IMG/VR virus record: IMGVR_UViG_3300049855_000239
Coordinates: 8,699 to 72,698 of that record
Origin: a virus
DNA length: 64,000 nucleotides
Direction: 5' to 3' (one strand)
The position numbers were made by a program, and so were the translations under genes. The notes beneath the pieces were generated by a model that saw nothing but the letters and a program-made list of their open reading frames with translations, ran no database searches and was not told where the DNA came from. Every line of letters begins with the position of its first letter. The stretch's first letter is position 1. Below are positions 1-14,524 of this stretch, one piece after another.

Positions 1-2
1 TG

Positions 3-164
3 GTAAAAGGAATGGCAACTAGATTAAATATTGAGATTAGAGACAAAAATGAGGCAGATCTTTTTAATGATGAGATTAAACTAAATCCAACAATCATGCA
101 GAAAGTAAATCCATTTATAGGCAAGCCAAAACTTGATCCTAAAATCACAAAAAAACTAAAATAG
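3..164 (+). CDS. 3' end of a hypothetical ORF running in from outside the window; stop lies just before the first attC-like site
   Basis: Open frame VKGMATRLNIEIRD...KITKKLK then TAG at 162-164, followed by ctgcagcTAAC. Confidence 0.5.
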   Translation, partial: VKGMATRLNIEIRDKNEADLFNDEIKLNPTIMQKVNPFIGKPKLDPKITKKLK

Positions 165-168
165 CTGC

Positions 169-298
169 AGCTAACACAGTATTTAAGAAACCTAGGGCTA
201 TATGAATTATTATTCATTATTCACATTTCATTAGTTTTTAGCGGTGGAGAATTTCGTCTCCGTCAATCCCTAAGTTTCTTAAATACATTGCGTTAGCG
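169..298. repeat. attC-like hairpin E1
   Basis: agcTAAC-aca-GTATTTAAGAAACCTAGGG ... CCCTAAGTTTCTTAAATAC-attgc-GTTAgcg; internal GCGGTGGAGA motif. Confidence 0.8.
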
Positions 299-934
299 GA
301 AACCGTGAGGACATTCAACACGATCGAAACTGTAAACCCAAACCCACGGATTTAGATCCCAACTATCATTTCCATTAATTTTTTGCCAAAGCGACCTATA
401 AGACCTTTGGGCATTTGAACACCATACCGATGGGTCTTTATTGGTATAGCATACAAAATTTCTTGGACTAAATCTGCAATTCTCGACACCTTCGCTTATC
501 GCATCTATTTCTGAAATGTCGTTTAGCCTTTCGACTCTAACATTTGTAACTTTTAGAAATAACCGACAAGCCTCTTTTGGCATAAATAGGCTTGGTTTCC
601 ATTTAGCAGACTCACAGCCAGATTTTATATATTCTTGTCTTAATTCTTCTCCTGAACTCCCTGTATCTGCCCTGTAATGCCAATAATTACGATGATACGT
701 ATGTGTTTCTCTGACCCAAATAATATCACCAATTTTGACTGGCGATTTCGATAAAGTTTCATCCCAATTTCCTAACGGAACATTATCTTTCAAAGTTCGT
801 CTTGTTTGGGTCTTGCTTCCATTTAATAATGCTCTGACCATCAGAGTTGAAAAAAGCATCGGTCTAAAAACGGCATCCGCTAACACTGTATTTGATAAAT
901 CAGGGGCGGTATTGGCTTTGGTTGCTGTATTCAT
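293..934 (-). CDS. ASCH/PUA-like phage protein (cassette gene)
   Basis: RPMLFSTLMVRALLNGSKTQTRR, WKPSLFMP, VRVERLNDIS, WDLNPWVWV motifs; likely ATG at 934 inside hairpin E2; stop TAA inside the core of E1. Confidence 0.7.
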   Translation of the reverse strand: MNTATKANTAPDLSNTVLADAVFRPMLFSTLMVRALLNGSKTQTRRTLKDNVPLGNWDETLSKSPVKIGDIIWVRETHTYHRNYWHYRADTGSSGEELRQEYIKSGCESAKWKPSLFMPKEACRLFLKVTNVRVERLNDISEIDAISEGVENCRFSPRNFVCYTNKDPSVWCSNAQRSYRSLWQKINGNDSWDLNPWVWVYSFDRVECPHGFR

Positions 935-1008
935 TTTAGTTTCTATTTTTACGGTGGAGAGTTCCGCCTCCGTCACTCCCTAGTTTTCTTGAACACCTGT
1001 CGTTATAT
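878..1008. repeat. attC-like hairpin E2 (chimeric arms)
   Basis: cgcTAAC 878-884 ... GTTAtat 1002-1008; left ~60 bp identical to E6; internal ACGGTGGAGA. Confidence 0.75.
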
Positions 1009-1037
1009 GATAGTTTAAAATAGCAGCACAAACATGT

Positions 1038-1487
1038 TTAATACTCATCAGGTGCTTTGTTTTTCCAACTACTTGAACTATTCTGCATACGCAAACCTCT
1101 TAAATATCTTGAAGCACATGCAAGTTCACACATCAAAATCCACGCTCTTTCGTTTGGAGAAGAAAAATTCTTTCGTCTTTTCATCTTGTTTTTTTCTTCC
1201 TCTGATAATGCTTCAAAAGCGACACATTCATCGTATCTACGTTCTAGTTCTTTCCAGCAGTCAATATATGGCATCCATTGCTTATGTTGAATCATTACCT
1301 TTTCAATTTGAGGTCTTAAATCAGGCAATTTTCTGAGCATCCTTACACATCGACCAACATCAGAAATATCATGCGGTACATCACATTCCCCAGTTGGTAT
1401 TCCTGTAATAGCAGCAAACATTGTTTTTGAAGAAATGCCAGTATCTCTACTTGCTAACCATTCCATCCATTCTTTTTTAACTTCCAT
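1038..1487 (-). CDS. hypothetical phage protein (cassette gene)
   Basis: 149-aa ORF with DTGISSKTM...PHDISDVGRC motif, bounded by cassette ends. Confidence 0.7.
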   Translation of the reverse strand: MEVKKEWMEWLASRDTGISSKTMFAAITGIPTGECDVPHDISDVGRCVRMLRKLPDLRPQIEKVMIQHKQWMPYIDCWKELERRYDECVAFEALSEEEKNKMKRRKNFSSPNERAWILMCELACASRYLRGLRMQNSSSSWKNKAPDEY

Positions 1488-1524
1488 ATTATTAATTTAT
1501 TGCGTTGTAAATAAAAAACCAATC

Positions 1525-1611
1525 ATATAACACTATGTTTCTGATATGGGCGATAAAGTACTGGTAGTTCGGAATTTCCGAATGCCCACATCAGAAACAT
1601 TTACGTTATGC
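1525..1611. repeat. attC-like hairpin E3 (short)
   Basis: ataTAAC-act-ATGTTTCTGATATGGGC ... GCCCACATCAGAAACAT-ttac-GTTAtgc. Confidence 0.8.
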
Positions 1612-1617
1612 ACAATG

Positions 1618-1884
1618 CTATAATGACGGCAATCCGAGCGAAGAACGTACTTTAGCTTCTGCCAGATTTTTGATAAAATCGCTATCTGAAAGAATCTCTT
1701 TTGCTTTTGCTGCAATCATTTCCTTGAAGTTTAATTCTTGCATTGCCTTATCTAGCCCTTCCCGTAATGCACCTTCTACACACCAATCTAATGCACTTTC
1801 AAAAGCATTTGCCTTATTGGACATAAAAGACTTTTGAAAGTATTCTGTCAATGCCCTTTGAATGTCAGGCATATGAGTTTGCAT
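1618..1884 (-). CDS. hypothetical protein (cassette region)
   Basis: 88-aa helical ORF between E3 and half-site E4. Confidence 0.6.
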   Translation of the reverse strand: MQTHMPDIQRALTEYFQKSFMSNKANAFESALDWCVEGALREGLDKAMQELNFKEMIAAKAKEILSDSDFIKNLAEAKVRSSLGLPSL

Positions 1885-1919
1885 TATATTAGCTTCATTT
1901 GCATTAGTTTACTTTTTGT

Positions 1920-1979
1920 ACGGTTGATACATTCGGCTTCGTTACTCCCGAAAAAGCGTGAATAAGTGTCTCGTTAGGC
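1920..1979. repeat. attC-like right half-site E4
   Basis: ACGGTTGATACATTCGGCTTCG ... tcGTTAggc; no matching left TAAC arm found. Confidence 0.6.
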
Positions 1980-1985
1980 GAAATA

Positions 1986-2171
1986 TTAAAAATCACCATC
2001 CTCTAACCCACGAATAACGAAACAAACGAAAGAATAGATTATTGACAAGATGCCACAAAAAAACAATACTTTCAAATGCCCTGTACTTGAAACATTAAAG
2101 CATATAATTAACCCTAAGCCGATAATGAATAATTTGTCAATGATTTTCATGTTGATAAAATTAAAATACAT
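1986..2171 (-). CDS. small two-TM membrane protein (cassette gene)
   Basis: Two hydrophobic segments; fills cassette 1973-2180. Confidence 0.55.
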   Translation of the reverse strand: MYFNFINMKIIDKLFIIGLGLIICFNVSSTGHLKVLFFCGILSIIYSFVCFVIRGLEDGDF

Positions 2172-2173
2172 TC

Positions 2174-2304
2174 GCCTAACACAGTACTTATAAAACTGTG
2201 GGCTTTTTTGGTTATTGTTACTTTACTGCGCTCCACTCGCTTTTTTGCGGTGGATAGTGGCGTGGTCTTAAATCCCACAGCTTTAAAAGTACGTGCCGTT
2301 ACCT
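2174..2304. repeat. attC-like hairpin E5
   Basis: gccTAAC-aca-GTACTTATAAAACTGTGGG ... CCCACAGCTTTAAAAGTAC-gtgcc-GTTAcct; near-identical to E11. Confidence 0.8.
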
Positions 2305-2305
2305 G

Positions 2306-2692
2306 CTATTTTGCAGACGAGTACCATTCAAATTCCTCATCCATTAATTGATAAGTTGTTTTCGCTTTACCACATTGCAAATCTTTTAAATAAGCAACGC
2401 ATCTTTGTTTAGGTGTCGGTTGTTGATAATTTTCATTTTTACCATCATTTACAGGATAAACCATATAGGTTGTTGCAATATTTTCAAACCAATCAAAAAG
2501 CTTTCCACCACCTAAATCAAATAAATGTCCGAATAAGCAATTTTTACCATCTTTTGTTTTTACTATATCTGTACACCAACTTTCCTCCGTTGTATTTTCC
2601 ATGTAAGTAATAATCACATCTAAAGAAAAAACAGCAGGTAACACTGTATTTGATAAATCAGGGGCGGTATTGGCTTTGGTTGCTGTATTCAT
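2306..2692 (-). CDS. hypothetical phage protein (cassette gene; first 18 aa encoded by hairpin E6)
   Basis: 128-aa ORF; N-terminus MNTATKANTAPDLSNTVL is identical to that of the 293..934 gene. Confidence 0.7.
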   Translation of the reverse strand: MNTATKANTAPDLSNTVLPAVFSLDVIITYMENTTEESWCTDIVKTKDGKNCLFGHLFDLGGGKLFDWFENIATTYMVYPVNDGKNENYQQPTPKQRCVAYLKDLQCGKAKTTYQLMDEEFEWYSSAK

Positions 2693-2766
2693 TTTAGTTA
2701 TTGTTTTTACGGTAGATAAATTCGGCTTCGAAAAGCCCCTGTTTTCTCAAATACTTAGCGTTAGCT
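2636..2766. repeat. attC-like hairpin E6
   Basis: aggTAAC-act-GTATTTGATAAATCAGGGGC ... GCCCCTGTTTTCTCAAATAC-ttagc-GTTAgct. Confidence 0.8.
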
Positions 2767-2767
2767 G

Positions 2768-3103
2768 CTATACTAACTGACGCCAAGTTTTACCACTATT
2801 GAATATTGGGCTTTTTTCGTCAACTAAATTAAGCTTACCAATTAGTTCATGTGCTTGTTGTTTTGATATTTTGCATTTGCCATAATTATCGGAATCATAA
2901 ACTTTTACAAGAGTATATTCATCATTCCACTGGCTTATACTCCAGAAATTATTATCCCACAGTTTTACACATTTATCAATATCGACTTTGCAAGATACTG
3001 TATTTGGAAATGTCAAAAGCACCTCTGTTAAAATAACAGTACAGCAGCTAACACTATGTTCTCGAACTTGTGGCGTTTTTTCAATCTTGATATTATTTTT
3101 CAT
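2768..3103 (-). CDS. hypothetical protein (cassette gene; probable start inside hairpin E7)
   Basis: ORF track 2768..3181 reads through E7; internal ATG at 3103 preceded by A-rich sequence. Confidence 0.55.
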   Translation of the reverse strand: MKNNIKIEKTPQVREHSVSCCTVILTEVLLTFPNTVSCKVDIDKCVKLWDNNFWSISQWNDEYTLVKVYDSDNYGKCKISKQQAHELIGKLNLVDEKSPIFNSGKTWRQLV

Positions 3104-3177
3104 GTCATTTACATTTTTACGGGTGATACTTTCGTGGACTTTACATGCCACAACTTCGTGAACATTTAGCGTTAGTT
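3046..3177. repeat. attC-like hairpin E7
   Basis: agcTAAC-act-ATGTTCTCGAACTTGTGGC ... GCCACAACTTCGTGAACAT-ttagc-GTTAgtt. Confidence 0.8.
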
Positions 3178-3588
3178 TCAATCTTGTAAAACGAGTTCTT
3201 CGCCAACAAGAGCAAAATATAAGTTCTGTAACTGGTGTACAAATTCAATCAATCTTAAACATGTACCTCGAAACCAAAATTCATTTCCAATAAAATATAT
3301 GTCATGATTTTCATCAAAATACCACATCTCGAAATCTTCTGAAATAAATCCAAACCGTTTCTTCCAGTTATTATCTAATGATATAGGGATAATTTCAACC
3401 AAATTACCATCCTTTATATGATATTCAACATGAAGGATGTTTTCTGGATGAGCAAATATATGAACTTCATCATCTCTAATTTCGACAACATTAAAATGAC
3501 AGTTAATATATTCTTCCTCTTCTAATTCTTTCTTAACTTCTTCGTTTATGAAGACAATATTCCCAAATCTTAACTCATTTACTTTCAT
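3178..3588 (-). CDS. YopX-like Bacteroidota phage protein
   Basis: NELRFGN...PISL...FGF...IEFVHQLQNLYFALVGEEL pattern. Confidence 0.65.
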   Translation of the reverse strand: MKVNELRFGNIVFINEEVKKELEEEEYINCHFNVVEIRDDEVHIFAHPENILHVEYHIKDGNLVEIIPISLDNNWKKRFGFISEDFEMWYFDENHDIYFIGNEFWFRGTCLRLIEFVHQLQNLYFALVGEELVLQD

Positions 3589-3616
3589 GGTTTTATGGTT
3601 ACGGTTGACAAAAAAA

Positions 3617-3673
3617 AGACTAAAACTACGGTGGATTTATTCGGCTTCGAAAAGCCCCTGTTTTCTCAAATAC
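3617..3673. repeat. truncated attC-like remnant E8
   Basis: ACGGTGGA followed by 3640-3673, identical to the E6 right arm 2721-2754; cut off where the 97-bp repeat starts. Confidence 0.65.
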
Positions 3674-3770
3674 TCTTTAAATACAGTGCAAATGTAGCAT
3701 TTAAATAATCTAAAAAAAATATTATTTTGATTTTTTATTTATCTTTTTAGTGCTTACATTTGTTCCACTA
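3674..3770. promoter_or_regulatory. divergent promoter block, copy 1 of a perfect 97-bp inverted repeat
   Basis: TACATTTG on - strand (3689-3696) and + strand (3755-3762); exact reverse complement of 9192-9288. Confidence 0.8.
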
Positions 3771-3952
3771 CATTTGTGGCATATTAAGACAACGATTATG
3801 ACAGTAAAATTTAAAACAGTCCCTACAACCTTATTGGTTATTTTTTTAATTGACCACATAAGCCAATCATTTACAAGTCACGTTACTAATTATCCTTATT
3901 GGGTTGTTTTGATTTTGTTTATGATATATTCAAAATTTGACTAAATAAGATT

Positions 3953-4318
3953 ATGAATTTACAACTATCATTAATTAATAGGTGGTTTATAAAAACCGAA
4001 ATAGGCGAGAAATTAGAGGACTATCGGGAACTAACGCCTTATTGGTATGCTAGATTATGTTTGTATGATGGCAAAAAACAACCTAAAAGTTTTTGGGAAT
4101 TTGCGCCAAGAACTAGCTTTAATTTTGATTCTAATAAAGTTACGTTTAAGAAATTCGAAGCAAACATTATGACATTAGGCTATCCTAAATCAACCGACAC
4201 AGATCGAATACTAAAATATAAACACGCTGGAATTGAAATAAGAACTGGTAATCCTAATTGGGGCGCAGAAGAAGGTAAATTATACTTTGTAATCAAGCAT
4301 GGAGAAAAGATACGGTAA
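3953..4318 (+). CDS. ASCH domain protein
   Basis: LQLSLINRWF...GEKLEDYRELTPYW...LGYPK...GNPNWGAEEGKLYFVI. Confidence 0.7.
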   Translation: MNLQLSLINRWFIKTEIGEKLEDYRELTPYWYARLCLYDGKKQPKSFWEFAPRTSFNFDSNKVTFKKFEANIMTLGYPKSTDTDRILKYKHAGIEIRTGNPNWGAEEGKLYFVIKHGEKIR

Positions 4319-4937
4319 TTGCGTATGTCACAATAGATATTCTAGTTTGAATGCTAAAGGTCTATGTCCAGAAGGCGCACGTGAGCGACATAAAAAGAGT
4401 GCCGAAAGTAAAGGATTTAAAGTAAAAGAATATGGAATTGATAGAAACACCAAAACAGAGGCTATTCAGGATAAAGAGTTTAGTTTTGAAGGAAATGGAG
4501 TTAAGGGAGAAACTACTTTCAAAAAGGCCAAAATCAACCGTGTTTCTGAAAACAAGGCAAAAGAAAACGCAGAATTGGCAAGACTTAAAAAGGCAAAGAT
4601 ATTAGAGTTAGGCGAAAAGTGCGAAATGTGTCCTAGACATGGAAGTGTTGATTTATTTCACATCATCGGAGTAGGGGATAAAACCCACGCTACTAATCCA
4701 AAAAACTTACTTCTTTCATGTCGCTGGTGCCATCTTATTTGGGGTGCAAACGACTTCGAAAAGATACTCAAATTCAATAATTTTGATGATATAATGAACC
4801 GATTGAAAGATTTGGATTCTGGTAAATATTGGAAGTTTAGGCACAAGATAGAAAAGCATGTAATTGAAAAGTATTTCGAGACAAAAGACAAAACAGATAT
4901 GAATAGGCTAGGTATAAAATTTGTGAGTCCATTATGA
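4299..4937 (+). CDS. HNH-type Zn-binding nuclease
   Basis: CEMC...DLFHIIG...NPKNLLLSCRWCH. Confidence 0.65.
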   Translation: MEKRYGNCVCHNRYSSLNAKGLCPEGARERHKKSAESKGFKVKEYGIDRNTKTEAIQDKEFSFEGNGVKGETTFKKAKINRVSENKAKENAELARLKKAKILELGEKCEMCPRHGSVDLFHIIGVGDKTHATNPKNLLLSCRWCHLIWGANDFEKILKFNNFDDIMNRLKDLDSGKYWKFRHKIEKHVIEKYFETKDKTDMNRLGIKFVSPL

Positions 4938-5260
4938 ACATTATTTTCATTTGTACTGCAAATAGGGATAGAAGCAGAACCGAAGAAATATATTTTCAAA
5001 ACAAATATCCTGAACATCGTTTTCGATCTGCTGGTATTAACAAGTATTTGAGCGAACGACACGGAGGTATTCACGTAAAAGCCTACATGTTAGATATTGC
5101 TGACCGTATTATTTGCGCTGAACATATTCATTCTGATTGGATAGTACGAAACATAAACAAAAAGTACCTAGATAAAATATAAGTATTAGAACTGGCCGAT
5201 ACTGGTACTTTTATGAGCAAAAGTTTAATAGATCGATTAGAAAGTAAGTTTAAAATATGA
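4934..5260 (+). pseudogene. low-molecular-weight protein tyrosine phosphatase (LMW-PTP/ArsC fold) with in-frame TAA at 5180-5182
   Basis: P-loop FICTANRDRS, SAG, ADRIIC; frame continues VLELADTGTFMSKSLIDRLESKFKI to TGA 5258-5260, overlapping the next ATG. Confidence 0.7.
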
Positions 5261-5607
5261 ACCACCCAGAAAGCGACTTACAAGCAAATTGTATAAAATG
5301 GTTTAGATACCAATACCCGCAACTAAAACTATGTTTGTTTAATGTGCCAAATGGATCAAAAAGAAGCAAGTCTCAACAAGCTATACTTAAAAAGGAAGGT
5401 GCTATTTCTGGAGTTTCTGACATTATTTTATTGGTGCCAAATAGCGAGTTCAATTCTTTATGTTTAGAAGCTAAGATTAAGCCTAATAAACAATCAGAAT
5501 CGCAAATTGAATTCGAAAAGGCCGTTACTAATTTTGGTAATTGTTATAAGGTATTTTACTCATTTGAAGAGTTTAGAAGTATTGTTACTAGTTATTTATC
5601 TTCTTAG
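5257..5607 (+). CDS. VRR-NUC nuclease
   Basis: ESDLQANCIKWFRYQYP...VPNG...GVSDIIL...LEAK...QSESQIEF. Confidence 0.8.
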   Translation: MNHPESDLQANCIKWFRYQYPQLKLCLFNVPNGSKRSKSQQAILKKEGAISGVSDIILLVPNSEFNSLCLEAKIKPNKQSESQIEFEKAVTNFGNCYKVFYSFEEFRSIVTSYLSS

Positions 5608-5654
5608 TTTATACTTGCTTTAGATTTGAAGTTCATGTTTAAGAAATAGTATTA

Positions 5655-5684
5655 CCACAGCTTTATAAGTACGTGCCGTTATAA
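5655..5684. repeat. attC-like right-arm remnant E9
   Basis: CCACAGCTTTATAAGTACGTGCCGTTA, identical to the right arm of E11. Confidence 0.65.
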
Positions 5685-5690
5685 GCCATT

Positions 5691-6062
5691 TTAAGAAGCA
5701 GATTCATAATAAAGATTTTTACCTCCTAATTGATAGTAGCAATCAAGAAGGGATTTTTTGGCTTCTTCTTTTATCCATTCTGTCTTGTGACCTAGATATG
5801 CTACATCAATATCTATCCATAATATTTCGGGTAGTTTAGCCCATATATTTTCATTATCTAATAACTCTTTTGCAAAACGTCCCATTCCATCCCAACTTTT
5901 AGTTTTTTCGTTGGTTTTTAATTCATCTGCACTTTTTATAGGTAATTCCAAATCCTCGCCTATATGGTTTGCTACTTTATAAATCTCAAACACTTCTTGA
6001 TGTATTTGAATACAGTTTGACCTCATTGTGTCAAAATCAATTATTGGTTTTTTACTTTCCAT
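5691..6062 (-). CDS. hypothetical protein (cassette gene)
   Basis: 123-aa ORF filling cassette 5678-6115. Confidence 0.65.
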   Translation of the reverse strand: MESKKPIIDFDTMRSNCIQIHQEVFEIYKVANHIGEDLELPIKSADELKTNEKTKSWDGMGRFAKELLDNENIWAKLPEILWIDIDVAYLGHKTEWIKEEAKKSLLDCYYQLGGKNLYYESAS

Positions 6063-6108
6063 GTTTTAATTAAATTAAATTGTTATAATTAGTGCAAATA
6101 AAAACGGC

Positions 6109-6238
6109 TTATAACGTTGTATTTTCGCACTTAATGGCATTCTGGTTTACATCACTTCACTTGCATTCATTCAGGCTACTACAGTGGATAAATTCGACTC
6201 TGTTCATCCATTAAATGCGTAAATAGTCTTCGTTAGGT
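6109..6238. repeat. attC-like hairpin E10
   Basis: ttaTAAC...TATTTTCGCACTTAATGG ... CCATTAAATGCGTAAATA...GTTAggt; internal ACAGTGGATAAATTCG. Confidence 0.8.
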
Positions 6239-6244
6239 GAAAAA

Positions 6245-6622
6245 CTAAGAGTCAAGGCAAGTTCTAACCTTTGCTCTTAATTCAGCTCCTTTTGGGTCGT
6301 TTTCTAAATGTGAACTGACTTCTTCGAGTAAGTCAATCATTTCCTTTATCCATTTTGGATGTTCTAAAATTTCAGATTCTTTGTCTTGATAATTGTCTAA
6401 TAAAATGCCCAAATTTAACGGAACTATAAAAGATCTGTCAGGTATTTTTTTAGCCACATCAGCAATTTCTTCATTTGCTCGTGTGGTATCATATCCATCA
6501 TTTTCTTTTATAATTTCTTCAAGTGAGTTAAGATATTCTCTTACTTCGTTCAGTTCTTTTTCGGTGCATTTTGCGACCGTTAATTGTTTTACTACAGTTG
6601 GCATAATCAAGAAGTTCTTCAC
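6245..6622 (-). CDS. hypothetical protein (cassette gene)
   Basis: 125-aa ORF filling cassette 6232-6627. Confidence 0.65.
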   Translation of the reverse strand: MKNFLIMPTVVKQLTVAKCTEKELNEVREYLNSLEEIIKENDGYDTTRANEEIADVAKKIPDRSFIVPLNLGILLDNYQDKESEILEHPKWIKEMIDLLEEVSSHLENDPKGAELRAKVRTCLDS

Positions 6623-6751
6623 CTAACACAGTACTTATAAAACTGTGGGTTTTTTGGGTTGTTGTTACATTTTTGCGCTCCACTCACTTTTTGGCGGTGG
6701 ATAGTGGCGTGGTCATTACTCCCACAGCTTTATAAGTACGTGCCGTTAGCG
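6621..6751. repeat. attC-like hairpin E11
   Basis: accTAAC-aca-GTACTTATAAAACTGTGGG ... CCCACAGCTTTATAAGTAC-gtgcc-GTTAgcg. Confidence 0.8.
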
Positions 6752-6757
6752 GAAACC

Positions 6758-7021
6758 TTAAAACCTTCTAGGCATTTTAAGGTAATCGCAACAAAAGTTT
6801 GATACAACTTCAAATGTTGATTGAAGTTTGCTTTTGCCAATTTCATTTGGTTTTTGAGCAACAACACCGCTTCCATCATCAAATTTGGTTATCATTATTC
6901 CTCCACATGTAATACTGAATTGATATTCCTCCCCTTTTTCTTTGTCAGTAGGGAGGTTTTCTATTTTTTCAATTACTGGCATCAGTAAATCCATACTTTC
7001 ATTAAAAGCAAGTTTGCCCAT
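6758..7021 (-). CDS. hypothetical phage protein, possibly N-terminally truncated
   Basis: FNESMDLLMPVIEKIE motif resembles the C-terminal half of a Bacteroidota phage family. Confidence 0.55.
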   Translation of the reverse strand: MGKLAFNESMDLLMPVIEKIENLPTDKEKGEEYQFSITCGGIMITKFDDGSGVVAQKPNEIGKSKLQSTFEVVSNFCCDYLKMPRRF

Positions 7022-7150
7022 GTGTCCATTTCTGGTTAACGCTTTGAATCAAATAGCAAGTGGCTTTTATTTATTCCCATCCTATTCAATCGGTTCATTT
7101 TAATTGAGACTCCAATCTTTACATTGGCTCAAATAAAGGCTAAAAATGAC

Positions 7151-7187
7151 AAAAGCCTAGATCTCGGGGGGAGCAATCTAGGCTTTT
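7151..7187. terminator. hairpin with T-tracts on both strands
   Basis: AAAAGCCTAGAT-ctcggggggagca-ATCTAGGCTTTT. Confidence 0.6.
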
Positions 7188-7294
7188 ATTTAAAAAACTG
7201 GCTTGGTATTCACTTCTGCCATTATCTTTAATTGTGCTAATTATTCCCCCGAACAATCACAGTGTAAAATTACAAATAATTTCTAAATTGCAAT

Positions 7295-7810
7295 ATGAAC
7301 GCAAAAATAAATAAAATATTGGCCGAAGTTGGCAAGGTAGTGGTAATAGTAGCAGGCTTCTATTTATTATTATGTTTGTACGATTGCACCCGAACTAAAC
7401 AAAAGCCTATCAAGGGTAAAGAAAAGGTAGTAAAGCAAACGCATACCCAAAAGGCCGATACGGTATTAGTTCATGATACATTACTGGTCTATTCAAAGCC
7501 TAAAACAATAATCAAGTGGAAATATAAACCTATCGAATTCGAGAGGTTTAACTATTGCGATTCGACTACTATTCAAACCGACACAATAACCAAGGAAGGC
7601 GTAAAAGTTGCGATACTAGACACTATTAGAAACAATTCAGTAGTAGGGAGGCAAACGCAAATTATTAGCGCAAATCAAATAATAACCAATACGTCAATAG
7701 ATTCAATTTTTACCGTTCGAGTTGACACGATTTATGTTAGGAAAAACAACGGGATGCTTTGTGCTACATGCTTTGGTGCTGGATTTGTTTTAGGTAGTTT
7801 TACAAAATAA
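7295..7810 (+). CDS. membrane-anchored protein (possibly lysis/spanin-related)
   Basis: N-terminal TM, repeated DT(I/V) motifs, hydrophobic C-terminus. Confidence 0.5.
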   Translation: MNAKINKILAEVGKVVVIVAGFYLLLCLYDCTRTKQKPIKGKEKVVKQTHTQKADTVLVHDTLLVYSKPKTIIKWKYKPIEFERFNYCDSTTIQTDTITKEGVKVAILDTIRNNSVVGRQTQIISANQIITNTSIDSIFTVRVDTIYVRKNNGMLCATCFGAGFVLGSFTK

Positions 7811-7986
7811 CTCAATCATTGTCTATAACGAATTTCACTCCGAAAATAGTAACTTTTCGGAGTGAAGATTTTTTATATTATTGTAATCCGTGTTTTTGCG
7901 CTTCGCATAATTGGCTATCGTTTCTAGTCCTAAATACTTTCCAAGTAGTTCAATTTCATGACACGGATGTTATATGCTATAAAGCA

Positions 7987-8334
7987 TTACCACTTGTTAT
8001 TTTTAATTAAATGTAGCAGGTATTCAAGCACTATATCTTGGACAATATTATCATATCGTTTTAGATATTTTCGTTTACTATTCAAATAAGATTTTACCTT
8101 ATTTTCTGCCCATTTTTCAGGATGAGAACTATAAAGAAGACTGTCAAAATCTAGCTTCAAAACTCTACAAATACCAAGCAATGTATATTCATCAGGTACA
8201 CATTCCCCTGATTCTATTTTAGAAATTGCTTGTTTTGTAACTTTTGCCATGCCACCAAGGCTTTCTTGTGTCATGTTTCTAGCCTTCCTAGCTTCTTTTA
8301 TAATGGTTGTTATTTCAACTTTTTCAGGAAACAT
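7987..8334 (-). CDS. XRE-family HTH regulator
   Basis: IKEARKARNMTQESLG...VTKQAISKIESG. Confidence 0.8.
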   Translation of the reverse strand: MFPEKVEITTIIKEARKARNMTQESLGGMAKVTKQAISKIESGECVPDEYTLLGICRVLKLDFDSLLYSSHPEKWAENKVKSYLNSKRKYLKRYDNIVQDIVLEYLLHLIKNNKW

Positions 8335-8362
8335 AGTAAATAGGATTAAAATAAAACTTTGC

Positions 8363-8492
8363 CACTAACATGATATTTAGTCATTTAAGGTCATTCTGGT
8401 GTCGGTTCTGTACTCGCATTCGGTTAGTTTTCTACGGTGGATAAATTCGGCTCTGTCACTCCCTTAAAAGCCAAAATACATGTTCGTTATAC
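8363..8492. repeat. attC-like hairpin E12
   Basis: cacTAAC 8363-8369 ... GTTAtac 8486-8492; TATTTAG..TTTAAGG / CCTTAAAAG..AAATA arms; internal ACGGTGGATAAATTCGGCTC. Confidence 0.7.
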
Positions 8493-8498
8493 GATATT

Positions 8499-8819
8499 TT
8501 AACAGTAGAACGGCAAGCAGTACCAAACATCTTTTACTTTGGTATATATTTCACCTTCAAATGAATCGCCCTCTAGTCCAATGCTTCTTTGGTCAATATA
8601 AACATCCTTGAATATCCCAAAGCCATTGTTTTGTTTATCTCCTTTTGGATTGTCAACTATTGTTATCTTTTCTGATATTTCGCAGCAGTCAGTTAAGCGA
8701 TCAAAGTCTTTTTTAGCTTTTTCACCAAATGATTTTATTATATCATCATTGTGCTTTGCTACCTCTGCATTGTATTCGCTTAGTTCTTTATACATTAAAT
8801 CTTCTTCTTCCTTAGTCAT
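8499..8819 (-). CDS. hypothetical phage protein
   Basis: 106-aa ORF; VYIDQ...GDSFEGEIY. Confidence 0.6.
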   Translation of the reverse strand: MTKEEEDLMYKELSEYNAEVAKHNDDIIKSFGEKAKKDFDRLTDCCEISEKITIVDNPKGDKQNNGFGIFKDVYIDQRSIGLEGDSFEGEIYTKVKDVWYCLPFYC

Positions 8820-8832
8820 TTTTGGTATTATC

Positions 8833-9063
8833 CTAACAACGTAGTATGGTATCTTTTCCGATACCTAAATGATTGGGTTTTATGCTGTGAATTTCATTGA
8901 GTTCAGATTGATGTTTTTCATCTCCCATACTCGGATCAATTTCATGCTTAAAAACTAAATTCAAATGACTCTTAATTACTTGCGTTTGTTCTTTATTTAT
9001 TGTTTCAGCATTACTTACTTCAAAAAACCCTTGTAGCCAAAAGGCAAAATCTCTACTTGTCAT
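8833..9063 (-). CDS. conserved small phage protein
   Basis: MTSRDFAFWLQGFFE...QVIKSHLNLVFKHEID. Confidence 0.65.
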   Translation of the reverse strand: MTSRDFAFWLQGFFEVSNAETINKEQTQVIKSHLNLVFKHEIDPSMGDEKHQSELNEIHSIKPNHLGIGKDTILRC

Positions 9064-9191
9064 ATAAATGATTGTTTAAATTGTTTTATTCTTCTTTTAA
9101 CCAAACTTGCACGTCCCTTTTGGTTTTATCAGTTCCTGTACTGCGGTGTTTTCCATTGTTTTAAAGTTTATTGGTTCAAACGAACCGCCAA

Positions 9192-9288
9192 TAGTGGAAC
9201 AAATGTAAGCACTAAAAAGATAAATAAAAAATCAAAATAATATTTTTTTTAGATTATTTAAATGCTACATTTGCACTGTATTTAAAGA
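9192..9288. promoter_or_regulatory. divergent promoter block, copy 2 of the 97-bp inverted repeat
   Basis: Reverse complement of 3674-3770; TACATTTG at 9266-9273 (+) and 9200-9207 (-). Confidence 0.8.
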
Positions 9289-9296
9289 CAATAAAG

Positions 9297-9464
9297 ATGG
9301 CAAAGACAGTACATATAAGCGAAGAGACGCATTCAAAGATAGAAGACTTAAAAGAAATGTTTAAGAAAGAGATGTTGTTACCTGTTAGTATTAACCAAAA
9401 GGAGGCGGTTGAGATAGCAATAGATGAGGCTTATAAGCGTAGAACTAAAACAGTAAAAAAATGA
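9297..9464 (+). CDS. small ribbon-helix-helix-like DNA-binding protein (not in ORF track)
   Basis: MAKTVHISEETHSKIEDLK...QKEAVEIAIDEAYK, 55 aa, first ORF after the promoter. Confidence 0.55.
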   Translation: MAKTVHISEETHSKIEDLKEMFKKEMLLPVSINQKEAVEIAIDEAYKRRTKTVKK

Positions 9465-9543
9465 CAACTGTAAAAAAAATAGGGTGGGAGTTAGACCTAG
9501 ACGAGGACGATGATCAAGAATATGAAACTATTCAAATACTAGT

Positions 9544-9753
9544 ATGAAAACCAAGGAGGAAATAATTAAAAAGTACTTTAAAGACGATCTTTCGGTAATG
9601 GATGATAACGGGGAATTGACTCTTTTCGGGGAGGTTATCGCATCGGCAATGGAGGAATATAAAGAAGGTTTAAACGAAACGTTAAACGCTTCTAATCATT
9701 CACATTTGATTATTGATTTTGAAAAAGGAGAAAATAATTTAAACAACAAGTAA
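9544..9753 (+). CDS. hypothetical protein
   Basis: MKTKEEIIKKY...AMEEY small phage ORF. Confidence 0.55.
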   Translation: MKTKEEIIKKYFKDDLSVMDDNGELTLFGEVIASAMEEYKEGLNETLNASNHSHLIIDFEKGENNLNNK

Positions 9754-9755
9754 AA

Positions 9756-10175
9756 ATGGGATCAGTTTGTAAGGTTATTTTATTGGGTAGGGTCGGGAAG
9801 GATCCTGAATTAAAACAAGTAAAAGATTCTTATGTTTGTAATTTTTCAATGGCAACAACTGAAAGTTATAAAGATAAATCAGGTAACAGAGTAGATCAAA
9901 CAGAATGGCATAATATCCAGTTTTGGGGCGAACAAAGTAAAATAATTGAAAAGTTCGTAAAAAAGGGACATGAGTTATATGTTGAAGGAACTATCAAAAC
10001 CGAAACATGGGAAGATAACGGAGTTAAAAAATATGCCGTTAAAATTAAAGGAACTTCTTTTGTTTTAATGAATAACAAAAAAGAAGGTGAAACACATGTA
10101 CAAGGCGAATCTAGCCAACGTAGTGAAACGACTATTCAATCACAAGATACAGACGGAGATAATTTACCATTTTAA
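9756..10175 (+). CDS. ssb: single-stranded DNA-binding protein
   Basis: KVILLGRVGKDPE, TEWHNI, KKG..LYVEG, acidic C-terminal DNLPF. Confidence 0.95.
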   Translation: MGSVCKVILLGRVGKDPELKQVKDSYVCNFSMATTESYKDKSGNRVDQTEWHNIQFWGEQSKIIEKFVKKGHELYVEGTIKTETWEDNGVKKYAVKIKGTSFVLMNNKKEGETHVQGESSQRSETTIQSQDTDGDNLPF

Positions 10176-10194
10176 TACCTAAAGAAGACTAAAT

Positions 10195-11238
10195 ATGGGA
10201 ATTTTAGATATAAAACCAGTAGTAAGAGGAGAAAGTAAAGTTTTATTAGCTTTTTCGGGACCAAGTGGAACAGGAAAAACACTATCGGCTTTGTATGTAG
10301 CTCGTGGGATGGTTTCTAAGCCATCGGAAATAGGTTTTTTAGATACCGAAAATGGTCGTGGTTCATTCTATTCAGATAAACTAGATGGACAGTTTATGTA
10401 CGCAAATTTGAATCCACCTTTTTCGCCTGATAGATATGGGAAGGCTATTAAGGAATTTCAAGATGCTGGCGTAAAAGTTCTTGTAATTGATTCAATATCT
10501 CACGAGTGGGAAGGGATTGGAGGTTGTGAAGAAATAGCTAACAGTTTAAAGCCAGATGGAACAGAGCGCAAGGTAGCGGATTGGAAGCGCTCCAAAAATG
10601 AACATAGGACAAAGTTTATGAATGCTTTAATGTATACAGAAATGCATATTATATGCTGTGTTCGTGCTAGAGAAAAGACTGATTTTAAAGAACCTACAAA
10701 GCCAGTTAGTTTAGGTATTCAGCCAGTTTGTGAGAAAAACTTTTTATTTGAAATGATGGCTTCTGTTATGTTTTCAAATGAAGGTAAGAATCAGAAATGG
10801 ATAAAAGTACCTGACTATCTTAAAGAAGCTTTTGGAAATGGGAATGATTATTTAGGCCAAAATACAGGTAAAAAAATAATGCAATGGGTTAGGCTTGGAG
10901 AAAAAGAAGACCCAATTATAACAAAAGCCAGAGGGGAAATAATACTTGTATGTGAGAATGGGTTAGTTGCATTGCAAGAAGCTTGGAAAAAACTTTCACC
11001 TCTTGCAAAAGGTGCTTTAAATCCTGAATATAAAGTTCATGCGGCATCGGCAATTGCGTTTGATAAAGAAAGAGAACGCTTGCATGATAGTATAGATAAA
11101 GTTGACAAAGAAGCTGAACGTATTTATTTAATGCTTTCTGATTGTAAAACGCTTATTGAAGTTGAGGAATTGCAAAATCAGGTCATTGGACACGAAGAAC
11201 TTTTTGTTAATCGTAAAGCAGAATTTAAAAATGCGTAG
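10195..11238 (+). CDS. AAA ATPase, Sak4-like recombinase
   Basis: Walker A GPSGTGKT, DTENG, Walker B VLVIDSISHEW; lies between SSB and an exonuclease. Confidence 0.8.
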   Translation: MGILDIKPVVRGESKVLLAFSGPSGTGKTLSALYVARGMVSKPSEIGFLDTENGRGSFYSDKLDGQFMYANLNPPFSPDRYGKAIKEFQDAGVKVLVIDSISHEWEGIGGCEEIANSLKPDGTERKVADWKRSKNEHRTKFMNALMYTEMHIICCVRAREKTDFKEPTKPVSLGIQPVCEKNFLFEMMASVMFSNEGKNQKWIKVPDYLKEAFGNGNDYLGQNTGKKIMQWVRLGEKEDPIITKARGEIILVCENGLVALQEAWKKLSPLAKGALNPEYKVHAASAIAFDKERERLHDSIDKVDKEAERIYLMLSDCKTLIEVEELQNQVIGHEELFVNRKAEFKNA

Positions 11239-12211
11239 CCTACCTACAACCTTCGAACCCGATACAGTACTGTTTCGTTGTTCCTCACTCGGTTATCTAA
11301 TGACAGATAGCCGAGAAAAAACAAACATTGAAAAGTATAACGATGCTATTGAATCTGTTTCAAAAAAGCAAGAACAATACGCCAACGCCAAAAACAAGGA
11401 AACTAAAACGGCTATTAAACTAGCCGAAGATATTAAAAAACTTCAATTCCAAATAGTAGAACTTGAAAAAGTAAAGCACGAAGAAACATTAAGCGAAACG
11501 GCAAAAACACATTGTATTGATGTGTTTGTCTCGCAAAAGTATAACCGTTTTACAGAACTAAGCGCAAAGCAATGTAACAAAGGAAACGATGTGGAAGATG
11601 ACTCAATTACCACAATCAGCCGAATAACAAAAAAGCTTTGGATTAAAAACACTAAAGAGGTAAAGAACGAATGGATAAGAGGAACGTGCGACATCCACAA
11701 CGGAACATGCTTAATTTTAGAAGATGGTATAAACTGGAAAATACAAGCAACAGAAGTAAGGGATGCTAAAAGTAGTTGGGATGCTTACTCTTTTTTTCGG
11801 GCAAAACACAAAGACTTAAAAAAACAATACTATTGGCAAGTATTGGGCTACATGTGGCTTACAGGAGCAAGAAAAGGCAGTGTAGATTATTGCCTCAATA
11901 ACACGCCATATCATATTGTTGAACGTGAATTAAAGTATGAATCGTACAATCATTTCGAAGGGAATACTCCAGCATGGATTGAACTCCAAATTATTGCAAA
12001 CCATGTTTATGATATTCAAACATTCAATGAGTATATCCAAAATAGGGGTTGTTATGCTACTGACGAAAACGCCTTGGCTGTTAAGGCTGGATTTGTACCA
12101 ATCCCTTTAGAAGAACGTCATTTCAATTTCGAGTTTGAATACAATGAAGATGACATCGATCTGGTGAAAAACAAAATATCACTAGCTAGGCAATACATTT
12201 CCACATTATAA
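11231..12211 (+). CDS. YqaJ/lambda-exonuclease-like PD-(D/E)xK nuclease
   Basis: FRCSSLG, KGNDVE, GTCD, DAKSSWD, YYWQVLGYMWLTG. Confidence 0.8.
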   Translation: MRSLPTTFEPDTVLFRCSSLGYLMTDSREKTNIEKYNDAIESVSKKQEQYANAKNKETKTAIKLAEDIKKLQFQIVELEKVKHEETLSETAKTHCIDVFVSQKYNRFTELSAKQCNKGNDVEDDSITTISRITKKLWIKNTKEVKNEWIRGTCDIHNGTCLILEDGINWKIQATEVRDAKSSWDAYSFFRAKHKDLKKQYYWQVLGYMWLTGARKGSVDYCLNNTPYHIVERELKYESYNHFEGNTPAWIELQIIANHVYDIQTFNEYIQNRGCYATDENALAVKAGFVPIPLEERHFNFEFEYNEDDIDLVKNKISLARQYISTL

Positions 12212-12362
12212 AGATCAATTGGAAACAAAAGAAAAAAGATATTCAGAGCTTTTAAACCTTAAAAACTTACTCTCATGTACTACACCAAAATAGAAACAGT
12301 CGCTATATTCTTTTGTTTAGGAATAGCTGGAATAGTAGAATCAATTTTAAACAACTTGTAAA

Positions 12363-12641
12363 ATGAACATAGGCCAATCAATTAGAGAGATACGAAAGTC
12401 TAAAGGGTTGAATCAAAAACAACTATCCGAGCGATGCGGAATGTCATTTAATGCATTGTGTCAAATTGAAACGGGGAGAACGCTTCCACAACGGACAACG
12501 CTTAATAAAATATGTGTTATTTTAAACGTACCAGTTTCTTATATCTATTTCAATAGTTTAGATGAAAAAGATGTACAAGAAAACAAAATACCAGTTTTTA
12601 AAGCCTTAAAAAAGGCAATAATGGAATTTCTACTAAATTAA
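12363..12641 (+). CDS. XRE-family HTH regulator
   Basis: IGQSIREIRKSKGLNQKQLSERCGMSFNALCQIETG. Confidence 0.85.
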   Translation: MNIGQSIREIRKSKGLNQKQLSERCGMSFNALCQIETGRTLPQRTTLNKICVILNVPVSYIYFNSLDEKDVQENKIPVFKALKKAIMEFLLN

Positions 12642-12646
12642 TAATT

Positions 12647-12880
12647 ATGATAACATGCACCAATAAACCATGCCCTTTGCGCTACATGTGCGAACGGGGA
12701 AATGATACTCAAACAGGTGAATTCTTTGAGTATAAAACGCTTAAAGGACACGATAACCAAGGGAATATTAGGTATACCCACGGATGCGACTATTTCGAAA
12801 AGAAGAAAGATATATTTCAGATTTGTGATGAGGTATATGGAAAACTAGAACCAATTGAACTAGAAAAAGATGTTGACTGA
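12647..12880 (+). CDS. small Cys-rich hypothetical protein
   Basis: CTNKPCPLRYMCER...CDYF. Confidence 0.55.
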   Translation: MITCTNKPCPLRYMCERGNDTQTGEFFEYKTLKGHDNQGNIRYTHGCDYFEKKKDIFQICDEVYGKLEPIELEKDVD

Positions 12881-13445
12881 GCGTGCGCATGAAATGTTCA
12901 AGCAATCTACCAAGTGCGCTTGTTTAGTTTTTAACCTTCAAAACGAAATAGACGGGTTTGAAGACAGAAAAGAATGTAAACACAAACTAAAAAGGTGGGT
13001 TCGGGATTTATTAAATGAAGTAAATACCGAAATAGATCACATTTGCTCAAAAGGACTAGGATTAAACGCAGATGCCCAGTATCAGTATGTTGAAATAACT
13101 AACAAACTATGGCACGATATGCCAACAAATCACATGCTAAATACTGGTGTTATCAACTATTCAACTAGGTTAATAATAGTATGCAAGCAGTTAGAAATTG
13201 AAGCGGAAAGGCTTAATAATCTGGCAGATAAAAAGTGTTATCGTGTTCATCCAAAACTTATTAGATTACTTAAAAAAGTAATTGAATCGGTCGAGATAAA
13301 TATAAGTAGTAGGCGAATAGCCGAACTGGTTACGATGCATTTAAAATCAGCAGATGCAACATTAACGTACTTTCTTGGAACTTACAAAGAACAATTAGAC
13401 GCAATTAAAGAATATCAAGATGATACGACCAGAATATTACAATGA
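12870..13445 (+). CDS. hypothetical protein
   Basis: 191-aa ORF overlapping its neighbours in the operon. Confidence 0.55.
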   Translation: MLTERAHEMFKQSTKCACLVFNLQNEIDGFEDRKECKHKLKRWVRDLLNEVNTEIDHICSKGLGLNADAQYQYVEITNKLWHDMPTNHMLNTGVINYSTRLIIVCKQLEIEAERLNNLADKKCYRVHPKLIRLLKKVIESVEINISSRRIAELVTMHLKSADATLTYFLGTYKEQLDAIKEYQDDTTRILQ

Positions 13446-13785
13446 TGAATTTAGTAGCCTTTACTTGGTCGCATTCAAACGCAAATGGACACCATGGCAG
13501 TTTGATGCAATGAAACGTTTAGAGCGCTGTGAGCAAAAAGGAAGCTTCAAACAGGACATTGAAAAGACTATTACAGTCATCGAGCTTCTTAAAAGTGAAT
13601 ACAATCCTAGTTTATGGCAGAAAGTAAAGTTCCTATTTAAAACACCTACGAATAAATTATCAGACCAAAGAGGATGGAATTTTTACGTTCATAATGTATG
13701 CTATGCGCTAGAAACTGGACGTTATGATTTGGCAATAGCCGAATGTCGCAAGTACTACTTTGCCGTAACCAAAAATAATTTATAA
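13420..13785 (+). CDS. DUF3310-like protein
   Basis: RPEYY...AMKRLERCEQKG..KQDIEK resembles DUF3310. Confidence 0.45.
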   Translation: MIRPEYYNDEFSSLYLVAFKRKWTPWQFDAMKRLERCEQKGSFKQDIEKTITVIELLKSEYNPSLWQKVKFLFKTPTNKLSDQRGWNFYVHNVCYALETGRYDLAIAECRKYYFAVTKNNL

Positions 13786-13856
13786 ACTTTTGTATTAAAT
13801 GTATACAAGTATTCGAAAGGTTCGTATATTTGTATACATTTAAACGACAACAAAAT

Positions 13857-14417: not shown

Positions 14418-14524
14418 AAAAGATTATACTACCAAAGTAGCGTCTGAAAGAGTTCGTACTGAATGGTACGATTTAGTAAAAAAAGAAATGAAAGATTTTA
14501 TTAAAAAACTGAAAGAAAAAGAAG

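Follow-up and report, generated by a model that had tools for sequence, protein, structure and literature searches.

The 64,000-nt stretch analysed here, hereafter the window, comprises bases 8699–72698 of the 72,698-nt virus record IMGVR_UViG_3300049855_000239 from the IMG/VR database, which is linear, has a G+C content of 36% and is estimated by CheckV to be 69% complete. Genes for a terminase large subunit, a portal, tail and virion proteins at 30–50 kb mark it as a tailed phage, and a set of rightward replication genes at 9.7–19.6 kb comprises an SSB-like open reading frame (ORF), an AAA_24 protein adjoining it (9756–11238) and a DnaB-like ORF. Left of these genes lies an array of short gene-bearing units and hairpin-forming sites that spans record positions 2460–17187, corresponding to −6238 to 8489 in window coordinates, which are used throughout unless the record is named. 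It holds at least 16 complete sites and several truncated ones, the window itself containing nine complete and three truncated sites. We consider it likely that positions 1–8489 are the right part of a ~15-kb integron-type cassette array in an uncultivated tailed phage lacking a recombinase of its own, on which a host Bacteroidota enzyme acting in trans would most probably operate.

The sites are usually ~125 nt long (range 47–127 nt) and are built from TAAC, a 3-nt spacer, one arm of a ~19-bp stem, a central part often carrying CGGTGGA, the opposite stem arm, a 5–6-nt spacer and GTTA. At its left start (record position 2460) the array shows a GTTA without a complete hairpin to its left, and at its right end a hairpin without a cognate TAAC following it. 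The window opens with the end (1–175) of a unit that starts further left (record 7937–8873); its ends are cognate, it carries a plus strand ORF (3–164) and it is the only one of 16 units with its longest ORF on the top strand. All complete sites are given on the plus strand, the first one (172–295, 124 nt) having a CGGTGGA-bearing centre and a 5-nt right spacer, and all units described in this paragraph from here on are oriented on the minus strand. Unit 1 (292–884) has the ends GTTAGCGGAAACCGT and ACGGCATCCGCTAAC and encodes a 187-aa protein (ORF 296–856) matching PHROG 874, a family of unknown function. It is followed by a site at 881–1005 (125 nt), by unit 2 (1002–1531; ORF 1041–1487, 149 aa), whose ends form a 1×2 internal loop at position 11, and by a short site of 81 nt (1528–1608). 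The next unit (1605–1976; ORF 1621–1884) has neither its TAAC end nor the next hairpin's left arm, the right half of that hairpin being all that remains (~1885–1976). Unit 3 (1973–2180, 204 nt) carries a small membrane-like ORF and leads to a site at 2177–2301 (125 nt) that is 90% identical to the one at 6624–6748; the units to the left of these two sites also have similar ends, TTCGCCTAAC and TTCACCTAAC. Unit 4 (2298–2642; ORF 2309–2602), a 125-nt site (2639–2763), unit 5 (2760–3052; ORF ~2771–3025) and a 126-nt site (3049–3174) come next, and after them a unit at 3171–3674 with an ORF at 3181–3588 (136 aa, PHROG 10066), which is 93% identical at the DNA level to a unit of another viral record (G002) and has lost its TAAC and the hairpin left arm, a right-arm remnant being left at 3612–3674. 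Beyond an interruption (3674–5677) the array resumes with unit 6 (5678–6115; ORF 5694–6062), a 124-nt site (6112–6235), unit 7 (6232–6627; ORF 6248–6604) and the site at 6624–6748 (125 nt).

The original prediction, made from the letters of the window alone, had proposed that seven of these units carry their own ~15-bp complementary ends. The seven quoted end pairs are found exactly where they had been placed, every string being unique in the window, and all seven units are real; the count was too low, as 16 consecutive units match in this way across the whole record. This number comes from a scan of the record, independent of the earlier list, for every pair of GTTA and TAAC lying 60–3000 nt apart whose flanks start with at least five complementary bases. 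It returned 24 pairs, 18 of them inside the leftmost 15.3 kb; the remaining 57 kb contain six, all away from hairpins. The 18 pairs resolve into 16 distinct hairpin-bounded units, one alternative partner and one chance match in a run of A. Pairs were scored over ten flank positions (5–10 and 12–15) with a shift of 1 nt allowed, whereby the 16 cognate pairs reached 9–10 out of 10 (mean 9.9), compared with a mean of 5.1 and a maximum of 8 for the 240 non-cognate pairs. Array-form pairs, meaning both flanks of one and the same hairpin (n=10), averaged 4.8, bearing out the claim that the ends of a cassette match each other better than the flanks of its own hairpin do. Shuffled pairings fell far below the cognate ones: in 100,000 permutations none attained the observed sum of 158, the best reaching 121. 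A hairpin element resembling a miniature inverted-repeat transposable element with target-site duplication was also considered and rejected, the two flanks of one hairpin being as unrelated (4.8 out of 10) as random pairs.

The ends follow a common pattern of GTTA, six paired bases, an irregular position 11 and four further paired bases, 15 bp in all. For a broader view we pooled nine viral contigs and one contig of a metagenome-assembled genome (MAG) whose arrays had been found by pattern scans, giving 50 units with 46 distinct end pairs. Flank positions 5–10 covary, with Watson-Crick pairs in 268 of 276 cells (eight non-Watson-Crick) and all four pair types present at three of the positions. 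The mismatch near position 11 noted earlier proved both real and regular, since the GTTA side carries A in 45 of the 46 pairs; opposite stands C in 21 and a 2-nt stretch in 19, which reads on the minus strand as a G·T pair or a one-base bulge. Such covarying ends of 15 bp amount to population-genetic evidence for a form in which the ends of a cassette are adjacent, evidence that is otherwise hard to obtain.

The sites themselves were aligned using 34 hairpins from six viral records and the MAG contig, from which a covariance model was also built. Every one of the 34 bears TAAC and GTTA at its borders, and compensatory changes occur in 18 of the 19 stem pairs, with 81% of the cells paired compared to 66% after shuffling and none of 500 shuffles reaching the observed value. 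Rfam holds no matching family for the hairpin, the sole match being glmS with 20.4 bits, below its threshold of 37. We then circularised in silico the 38 cassettes with a defined right-hand hairpin by joining the own left end to that hairpin, and the joined ends lowered the folding energy relative to the array form in 38 of 38, as had been anticipated. On the bottom strand the values were −28.1 kcal/mol for the circle, −19.6 for the array form and −19.6 with the ends of other cassettes, and on the top strand −25.6, −17.9 and −18.0 kcal/mol, respectively. The bottom strand was the more stable one in 32 of the 38 cassettes. This strand, the minus strand here, would fold better because the irregularity is an A·C mismatch on the plus strand and a G·T pair or 1-nt bulge on the minus strand; G:T mispairs are described as enriched on the folded bottom strand of attC sites in the part of the literature covered (Nivina et al. 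2016, PMC5027507).

Which of its two neighbouring hairpins belongs to a unit is indicated by viral pairs of units with identical ends, in which any clearly alike flanking hairpin is the right one, the right-hand alignment scores being 76, 77 and 57 and the left-hand ones of the same pairs 9, 8 and 20. Two of these three pairs have unrelated ORF bodies, and in them the similarity runs from the bases preceding TAAC through the hairpin to GTTA and returns only in the GTTA and its flank at the far end. Likewise, three units of viral record G002 that share their ends have homologous short right hairpins and unrelated left ones. Because the ends are linked to the right hairpin, we take a cassette to be a unit plus the hairpin to its right and the plus strand to be the equivalent of the attC top strand.

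The expectation that the same cassettes should be met with different neighbours elsewhere was confirmed in six cultured Flavobacterium phages (Lillamyvirus, Muminvirus), with junctions falling on the core tetranucleotides. Their arrays tile without gaps and comprise 8–15 cassettes each, the one of phage snork6-2 having at least 12 hairpins and 13 cognate units. The six genomes differ by whole cassettes and in cassette order, the shared cassettes being 94–99% identical. Cassette 18, for instance, is present in sniff9-1 and absent from snork6-2 and hemulen9-1, with both sides identical right up to GTTA; cassette 6 occurs in three contexts and retains its hairpin in each; cassette 12 has cassettes 3 and 4 as its neighbours in two phages and cassettes 14 and 1 in three others; and the hairpin preceding cassette 1 is constant, whatever unit stands before it. 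At the DNA level, the likeness of the present record to Flavobacterium phages is confined to short stretches, and a search of the GenBank phage collection with positions 1–3700 found no hairpin and a single cassette-gene match, in Flavobacterium phage laban6-1. One methylase cassette of viral record G002 has homologues, found via the methyltransferase protein and 81–85% identical, in 27 GenBank records of Flavobacterium phages with the isolation strains LMO6 and LMO9. Differences in methyltransferase content have been tied to plating efficiency in the LMO6 and LMO9 phages, and the searched passages of that study mention neither hairpins nor palindromes nor integrons (Nilsson et al. 2020, PMC7077304). 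Flavobacterium sp. LMO6 and LMO9 together with their phages constitute an existing cultured test system. Among metagenomic and bacterial units, a breakpoint search with a strict filter gave no case, and a relaxed filter gave three viral cases with homology ending at most 12 nt from the GTTA core, one duplicated segment within a single MAG having been left out of the count.

These whole-cassette differences bear on the idea that the array is an inactive relic, an integrase-free cluster of attC sites (CALIN) that was acquired once from a host array and has only been inherited since, its ends recording past events. Such decay would account for the truncated sites in the window (~1885–1976, 3612–3674 and 5640–5681), the stretch at 6745–8365 without cognate ends, the missing integrase and the lack of variants in the one sequencing run that holds the region. 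Yet close cultured phages with nearly identical cassettes differ by whole cassettes and their order, otherwise unrelated phages share modules of hairpin and ends on unrelated genes, the complementarity is still 9–10 out of 10 in all 16 units, and the opposite gene polarity and phage-type cargo described below point away from wholesale copying of a host array. We therefore regard a mere relic as quite improbable.

If the cassettes do move, the enzyme involved does not appear to come from the phages. No match to PF00589, the tyrosine recombinase family, was found in 13 phage records (eight from IMG/VR, three of them with 100% CheckV completeness, and five cultured phages), and none to PF00239 (serine recombinase) or PF01797 (Y1 transposase) in the five IMG/VR records searched. 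The array-bearing phages share almost no proteins; no family is common to all six larger records, the widest being a 171-aa protein present in four. On these grounds we rejected a phage-encoded recombinase. The array was also considered as a trait of the phage lineage defined by the AAA_24 protein and this was discarded as well, four relatives (L001–L004) having no hairpin in up to 10 kb upstream.

With no site-specific recombinase found in any phage record searched, the general recombination of the phages themselves might shuffle the cassettes, using hairpin arms and cores as short homologies. A precedent would be the PeSL cassettes of T4-type phages, reportedly described by Arbiol and colleagues in 2010 as promoter-plus-stem-loop repeats that are exchanged by homology. 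They resemble the present arrays in their small early genes, their position in a variable phage region, their repeated stem-loops and their shuffling between phages; we know of no cassette-specific complementary ends and no cellular, recombinase-bearing counterpart for PeSL. The phage studied here has an SSB-like ORF, the AAA_24 protein (both within 9756–11238) and a possible nuclease, hairpins are 70–90% alike between unrelated phages, and one cultured-phage junction lies at TAAC, inside what an integron model calls one cassette. Recombination of this kind leaves unexplained why 11 variable bases on both sides of a unit are complementary and covary, and why the strand-asymmetric irregularity at position 11 is conserved. 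Nor does it fit that array-bearing phages have almost no core proteins in common, or that the same site family forms arrays beside a tyrosine recombinase in bacteria, and we consider this explanation unlikely.

The bacterial arrays came to light in a pattern scan of one genome per species, which gave one true match, on the contig of a Cytophagaceae MAG. With the covariance model, the site family was detected in 50 of 151 sampled genomes of the Bacteroidota order of this MAG and in 39 of 151 of its phylum, the matches being clustered with up to 17 per genome. At 14 bacterial loci, 65 of 68 model matches (E below 0.03) were used and define 51 units between adjacent hairpins. Cognate ends scoring 9–10 out of 10 are present in 41 of the 51, with A at position 11 in 41 of 41, and the cores are either TAAC/GTTA or CAAC/GTTG. 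Upstream of the first hairpin detected, a cognate GTTR site is present in nine of the 14 arrays. In genomes G076 and G012 the first cassette begins at a cognate, non-hairpin GTTR site; the operon 0.2–0.8 kb upstream of it is headed by a tyrosine recombinase gene oriented like the cassettes. Between this gene and the array entry site lies a Zeta_toxin/AAA_33-like or an SSB-like ORF, one per genome (G076, L085 3284–5518; G012, L084, reverse strand). Two arrays of G076 open with nearly the same palindromic sequence before the first core, only one of them having the recombinase beside it. MAG G001 additionally holds another dispersed repeat of ~70–180 nt, with more than 40 copies on more than 20 contigs that are often clustered ~1 kb apart, one of which adjoins the cassette array of the MAG (contig C3, L010 200–560).

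In 12 genomes a hairpin is preceded on its own strand, within ~10 kb, by a homologue of the recombinase, and one further genome has it in divergent orientation. Hairpins and recombinase co-occur in 34 genomes, 16 have hairpins only, 32 the recombinase only and 69 neither, an odds ratio of 4.6 that is only indicative, as related genomes are not independent. The protein carries PF00589 together with a SAM-like domain at its N-terminus, and among curated models it scores best with an archaeal XerA/'integron integrase' model (204–211 bits, cut-off 220) and with TIGR02249 (190–199 bits, cut-off 265), the latter match falling into two stretches that skip model positions ~180–238. Among solved structures it is closest to XerA and XerC/D, and residues ~212–247 of VchIntIA (PDB 2A3V), the region of the IntI-specific insertion, have no match in it. 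The recombinase beside the bacterial arrays is thus, as judged from its sequence, a Xer/IntI-like tyrosine recombinase and not IntI, its handling of folded single strands being putative.

Phage and bacterial cassettes differ in the direction of their genes. Of the bacterial units, 49 of 51 have their longest ORF on the top strand, as in canonical integrons, and of the viral ones 45 of 48 have it on the bottom strand; because of this opposite polarity the phage cassettes are not simple copies from host arrays. Inversion of bacterial-type units between their cores was rejected as the origin of the reversed polarity; it would place G at position 11 of the GTTA side, where A is found in 45 of 46 pairs.

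Polarity also bears on a possible role of the matching ends in RNA, where a 15-bp stem with a G·U pair would enclose each ORF in the leftward transcript and serve its processing or stability. The phage coding strand is indeed the one with G·T(U) at position 11, and the ends sit just outside the ORFs. The bacterial genes, in turn, occupy the opposite strand in 49 of 51 units, with an A·C mismatch at position 11, and their ends are equally cognate; moreover, ends move with a particular hairpin to unrelated genes, insertions and deletions in cultured phages are bounded at cores, and Rfam offers nothing beyond the sub-threshold glmS match (20.4 versus 37 bits). A function in RNA consequently appears very improbable to us.

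The cargo is likewise of two kinds. Nine of ten cassette proteins in the window have no Pfam family and three of ten match PHROGs of unknown function. Those phage cassettes that were tested against Pfam contain three N6_N4 methylases (G002) and, to the left of the window in the present record, a C-5 cytosine methylase and a Tad2-like protein. The latter two lie at L071 3658–4098, a protein with the Tad2-like domain known from Thoeris anti-defence (84 bits), and 5430–6571, the methylase, which is split into two ORFs and may be frameshifted. PADLOC matches were obtained for five of the ten largest bacterial cassette proteins, namely a fusion of prokaryotic Argonaute (pAgo) and SIR2 (1437 bits), AbiU, Old/GajA, a restriction-modification (RM) methylase and a weak caspase hit, other large proteins having MoxR/vWA domains or a beta-lactamase-fold domain. 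One bacterial cassette, in G068 (L093 1746–3281), encodes a 512-aa protein with a Beta-lactamase (PF00144) fold domain, a fold that also covers esterases and penicillin-binding proteins. Small phage-cassette genes of no known function that stand beside methyltransferase or Tad2-like cassettes are good candidates for new anti-defence proteins.

Several features of the window fall outside the regular cassette pattern. The interruption at 3674–5677 begins with one arm (3674–3770) of a perfect 97-nt inverted repeat, contains four plus strand ORFs at 3953–5607 between two truncated hairpins and ends at the hairpin right-arm remnant 5640–5681. The ORFs encode 121 aa, 212 aa (with a weak HNH match of 16.6 bits, below cut-off), 82 aa and 116 aa, and the block looks like a later insertion into the array. 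The second repeat arm (9192–9288) stands at the border with the rightward replication genes, so that the two arms flank a 5.4-kb segment made up of part of the array and a block of plus strand genes, one copy facing the leftward cassettes and the other the replication genes. The repeat might represent a duplication of an early regulatory region or else what an inversion left behind. In its vicinity, Logan contigs show breaks or loose ends (3668/3973 and 9036/9065), with low depth at 3721–4030. Between the site at 6624–6748 and the last site of the array (8366–8489, plus strand, 124 nt), after which a cognate TAAC is absent, the stretch 6745–8365 without cognate ends carries a minus strand ORF (6761–7021), the plus strand gene of the 171-aa protein (7295–7810) and a minus strand HTH_3 gene (7990–8334). 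The 171-aa protein has hydrophobic N- and C-termini and no Pfam or PHROG match, and its homologues lie directly beside arrays in four of the six larger viral records (G000, G002, G006 and G008). Further to the right, three direct copies of a 39-nt repeat (72–100% identical, 17720–17824) with an iteron-like look are located in or beside an ORF at 17465–18166, upstream of the DnaB-like gene.

These arrays resemble integrons in several respects; all comparisons drawn here refer to the parts of the cited papers that were covered. In both, co-oriented cassettes each end in an imperfect-palindrome site with the core 5'-AAC-3'/GTT (Nivina et al. 2016, PMC5027507; Cury et al. 2016, PMC4889954), outer box and inner stem are set apart by an unpaired spacer, and G:T pairs favour the bottom strand. 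The first bases of a cassette complement the inverse core of its own site, as seen here in 16 of 16 units and in 41 of 51 bacterial ones, and the bacterial relatives add a tyrosine recombinase and a non-hairpin entry site at one array end. The differences are as follows: the outer pairing extends over 15 bp with a fixed irregularity at position 11 instead of the 7 bp of the canonical R box; the inner stem has symmetric mismatches, with no clear extrahelical bases beside an L box seen; the recombinase, whose gene has the orientation of the cassettes, is without the IntI insertion; and phage genes lie on the bottom strand.

Judged by the formal definition, in which an integron integrase combines PF00589 with an IntI-specific region near patch III (Cury et al. 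2016, PMC4889954), neither side qualifies, the phage records having no PF00589 and the bacterial enzyme scoring below the TIGR02249 cut-off with the insertion missing. The attC signature (RYYYAAC...GTTRRRY, unpaired spacer, favoured bottom strand) is approached by TAAC...GTTA in 34 of 34 sites, spacers of 3 versus 5–6 nt and a favoured bottom strand in 32 of 38 cassettes, and complementarity to the own core, typical of integron cassettes, extends over 15 bp rather than 7. An integron further has an attI-type entry site next to its integrase and genes on the attC top strand; here, non-hairpin GTTR or GTTA starts exist in bacterial genomes G076 and G012 and in this phage record, with genes mostly on the top strand in bacteria (49 of 51) and mostly on the bottom strand in phages (45 of 48). 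With respect to CALINs, defined by at least two attC sites within a few kb and no integrase nearby, the phage array combines at least 16 complete sites with the absence of an integrase and may be one, insofar as its sites count as attC. The view of these units as integron-style cassettes that pair their own ends as circles is accordingly upheld by end scores, folding, covariation and the cultured phages, whereas the formal definition of an integron does not apply.

Integrase-free attC-type sites have been reported from lytic phages before, with 17 CALINs in 10,705 phage genomes, each having at least two predicted sites and the examples ~2–4 (Qi et al. 2023, PMC9892861). They include those of Polaribacter phage P12002L, a Flavobacteriia phage, and share with our arrays the DNA methyltransferase cargo. 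This record differs by its at least 16 complete sites, as do the cultured Lillamyvirus and Muminvirus phages by their 8–15 tiled cassettes, and extended cognate ends, reversed polarity and a link to a non-IntI recombinase are absent from the main-text parts of that paper covered, its supplementary tables lying outside the comparison. Defence cassettes in chromosomal arrays are known from sedentary chromosomal integrons (Darracq et al. 2024, 10.1101/2024.07.02.601686), to which the pAgo/SIR2, AbiU, Old/Gabija-like and RM cassettes found here correspond; those integrons use IntI and are mainly from Vibrio, while the present arrays are from Bacteroidota, have another recombinase and possess a phage counterpart with counter-defence genes. 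Bacteroidota are among the clades previously found without integrons according to the same study, and integrons are described as very rare in Bacteroidetes (Néron et al. 2022, PMC9024848). We found no account of these Bacteroidota arrays, the 15-bp ends or the reversed polarity in the literature, subscription journals and supplementary files being outside the search. The logic of cassette and hairpin is that of integrons, and site architecture, recombinase, phylum, phage-array size and the polarity split between host and phage are not described in the literature covered.

Xer-type enzymes offer a further point of comparison. In CTX phage, host XerCD acts on the attP hairpin of the single-stranded phage DNA. 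Enzyme type and hairpin site are alike, but there the whole phage integrates at dif and no cassette arrays are formed. A dif-like Xer site consists of two ~11-bp binding arms around a central region of 6–8 bp and is double-stranded; the outer arm seen here (TAAC, 6 bp and position 11) is also 11 nt long, a resemblance only.

Taken together, we propose that each cassette combines a short gene-bearing unit with the imperfect palindrome that follows on its right side in plus coordinates, and that strand exchange would occur within or beside the conserved core, whatever bases follow a GTTA being those of the next cassette. As exchange would fall at the core, these bases complement those preceding the TAAC of their own cassette and not the flank of the hairpin they touch. 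Excision would join the ends, and the hairpin would thereby gain a cassette-specific outer stem of 6 bp, the position-11 irregularity and 4 bp. A host tyrosine recombinase of the Xer/IntI-like type most likely acts in trans on the phage DNA during infection. Host cassettes would carry defence genes on the top strand and phage cassettes counter-defence genes along with many small genes of unknown function on the bottom strand, with transcription probably running leftwards from the border of the early genes. The circular intermediates, the precise point of crossover, a host enzyme working on phage DNA and a role for the outer stem are inferred.

A number of observations weigh against this account. 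As far as TAAC the two versions of cassette 12 are 98.8% identical, and beyond it their hairpins differ, so that exchange at GTTA, as originally predicted, fits two of the three junction events examined while one maps to the TAAC core, which makes the left core a junction site as well. The conserved CGTTA does not allow the crossover to be pinned to one of its bases. At the bacterial loci the linkage between ends and right hairpin is weak, identical ends giving mean scores of 36.9 on the right versus 22.9 on the left and one pair showing the opposite. The polarity difference between phage and bacterial cassettes is not accounted for by this model. A recombinase match at E≤1e-40 is missing from 16 of the 50 hairpin-bearing genomes, MAG G001 among them. 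The enzyme beside the bacterial arrays is without the IntI-specific insertion, which is the defining feature of integron integrases for IntegronFinder (Cury et al. 2016, PMC4889954) and is tied to the specialised single-strand pathway of the integron (Escudero et al. 2016, PMC4792948). Finally, no circle or excision joint was seen in the sole DNA run holding the region, probably the source sample and stored as contigs, which break at the repeats; no RNA run with the region was listed, and these data are not evidence either way on mobility or expression.

On a wider scale, we tentatively suggest, at somewhat less than even confidence, that Bacteroidota and their phages share a phylum-wide, IntI-free analogue of the integron, which would combine a Xer/XerA-like enzyme with a 15-bp cassette-specific outer stem bearing one strand-asymmetric irregularity. 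Hosts would stock defence genes in it, lytic phages would reshuffle counter-defence genes by means of the host enzyme, and the two pools would be kept separate by their polarity despite a common recombination chemistry. Integrons are defined by their integrase domain, and the recombinase found here is without that domain; if the arrays are active, the capture of cassettes by folded single strands would not be tied to IntI, and roughly between a quarter and a third of the Bacteroidota genomes sampled would hold arrays missed as integrons by integrase-based searches. Lytic phages, in that case, would keep large, fast-changing stores of counter-defence genes in the very format in which their hosts store defence.

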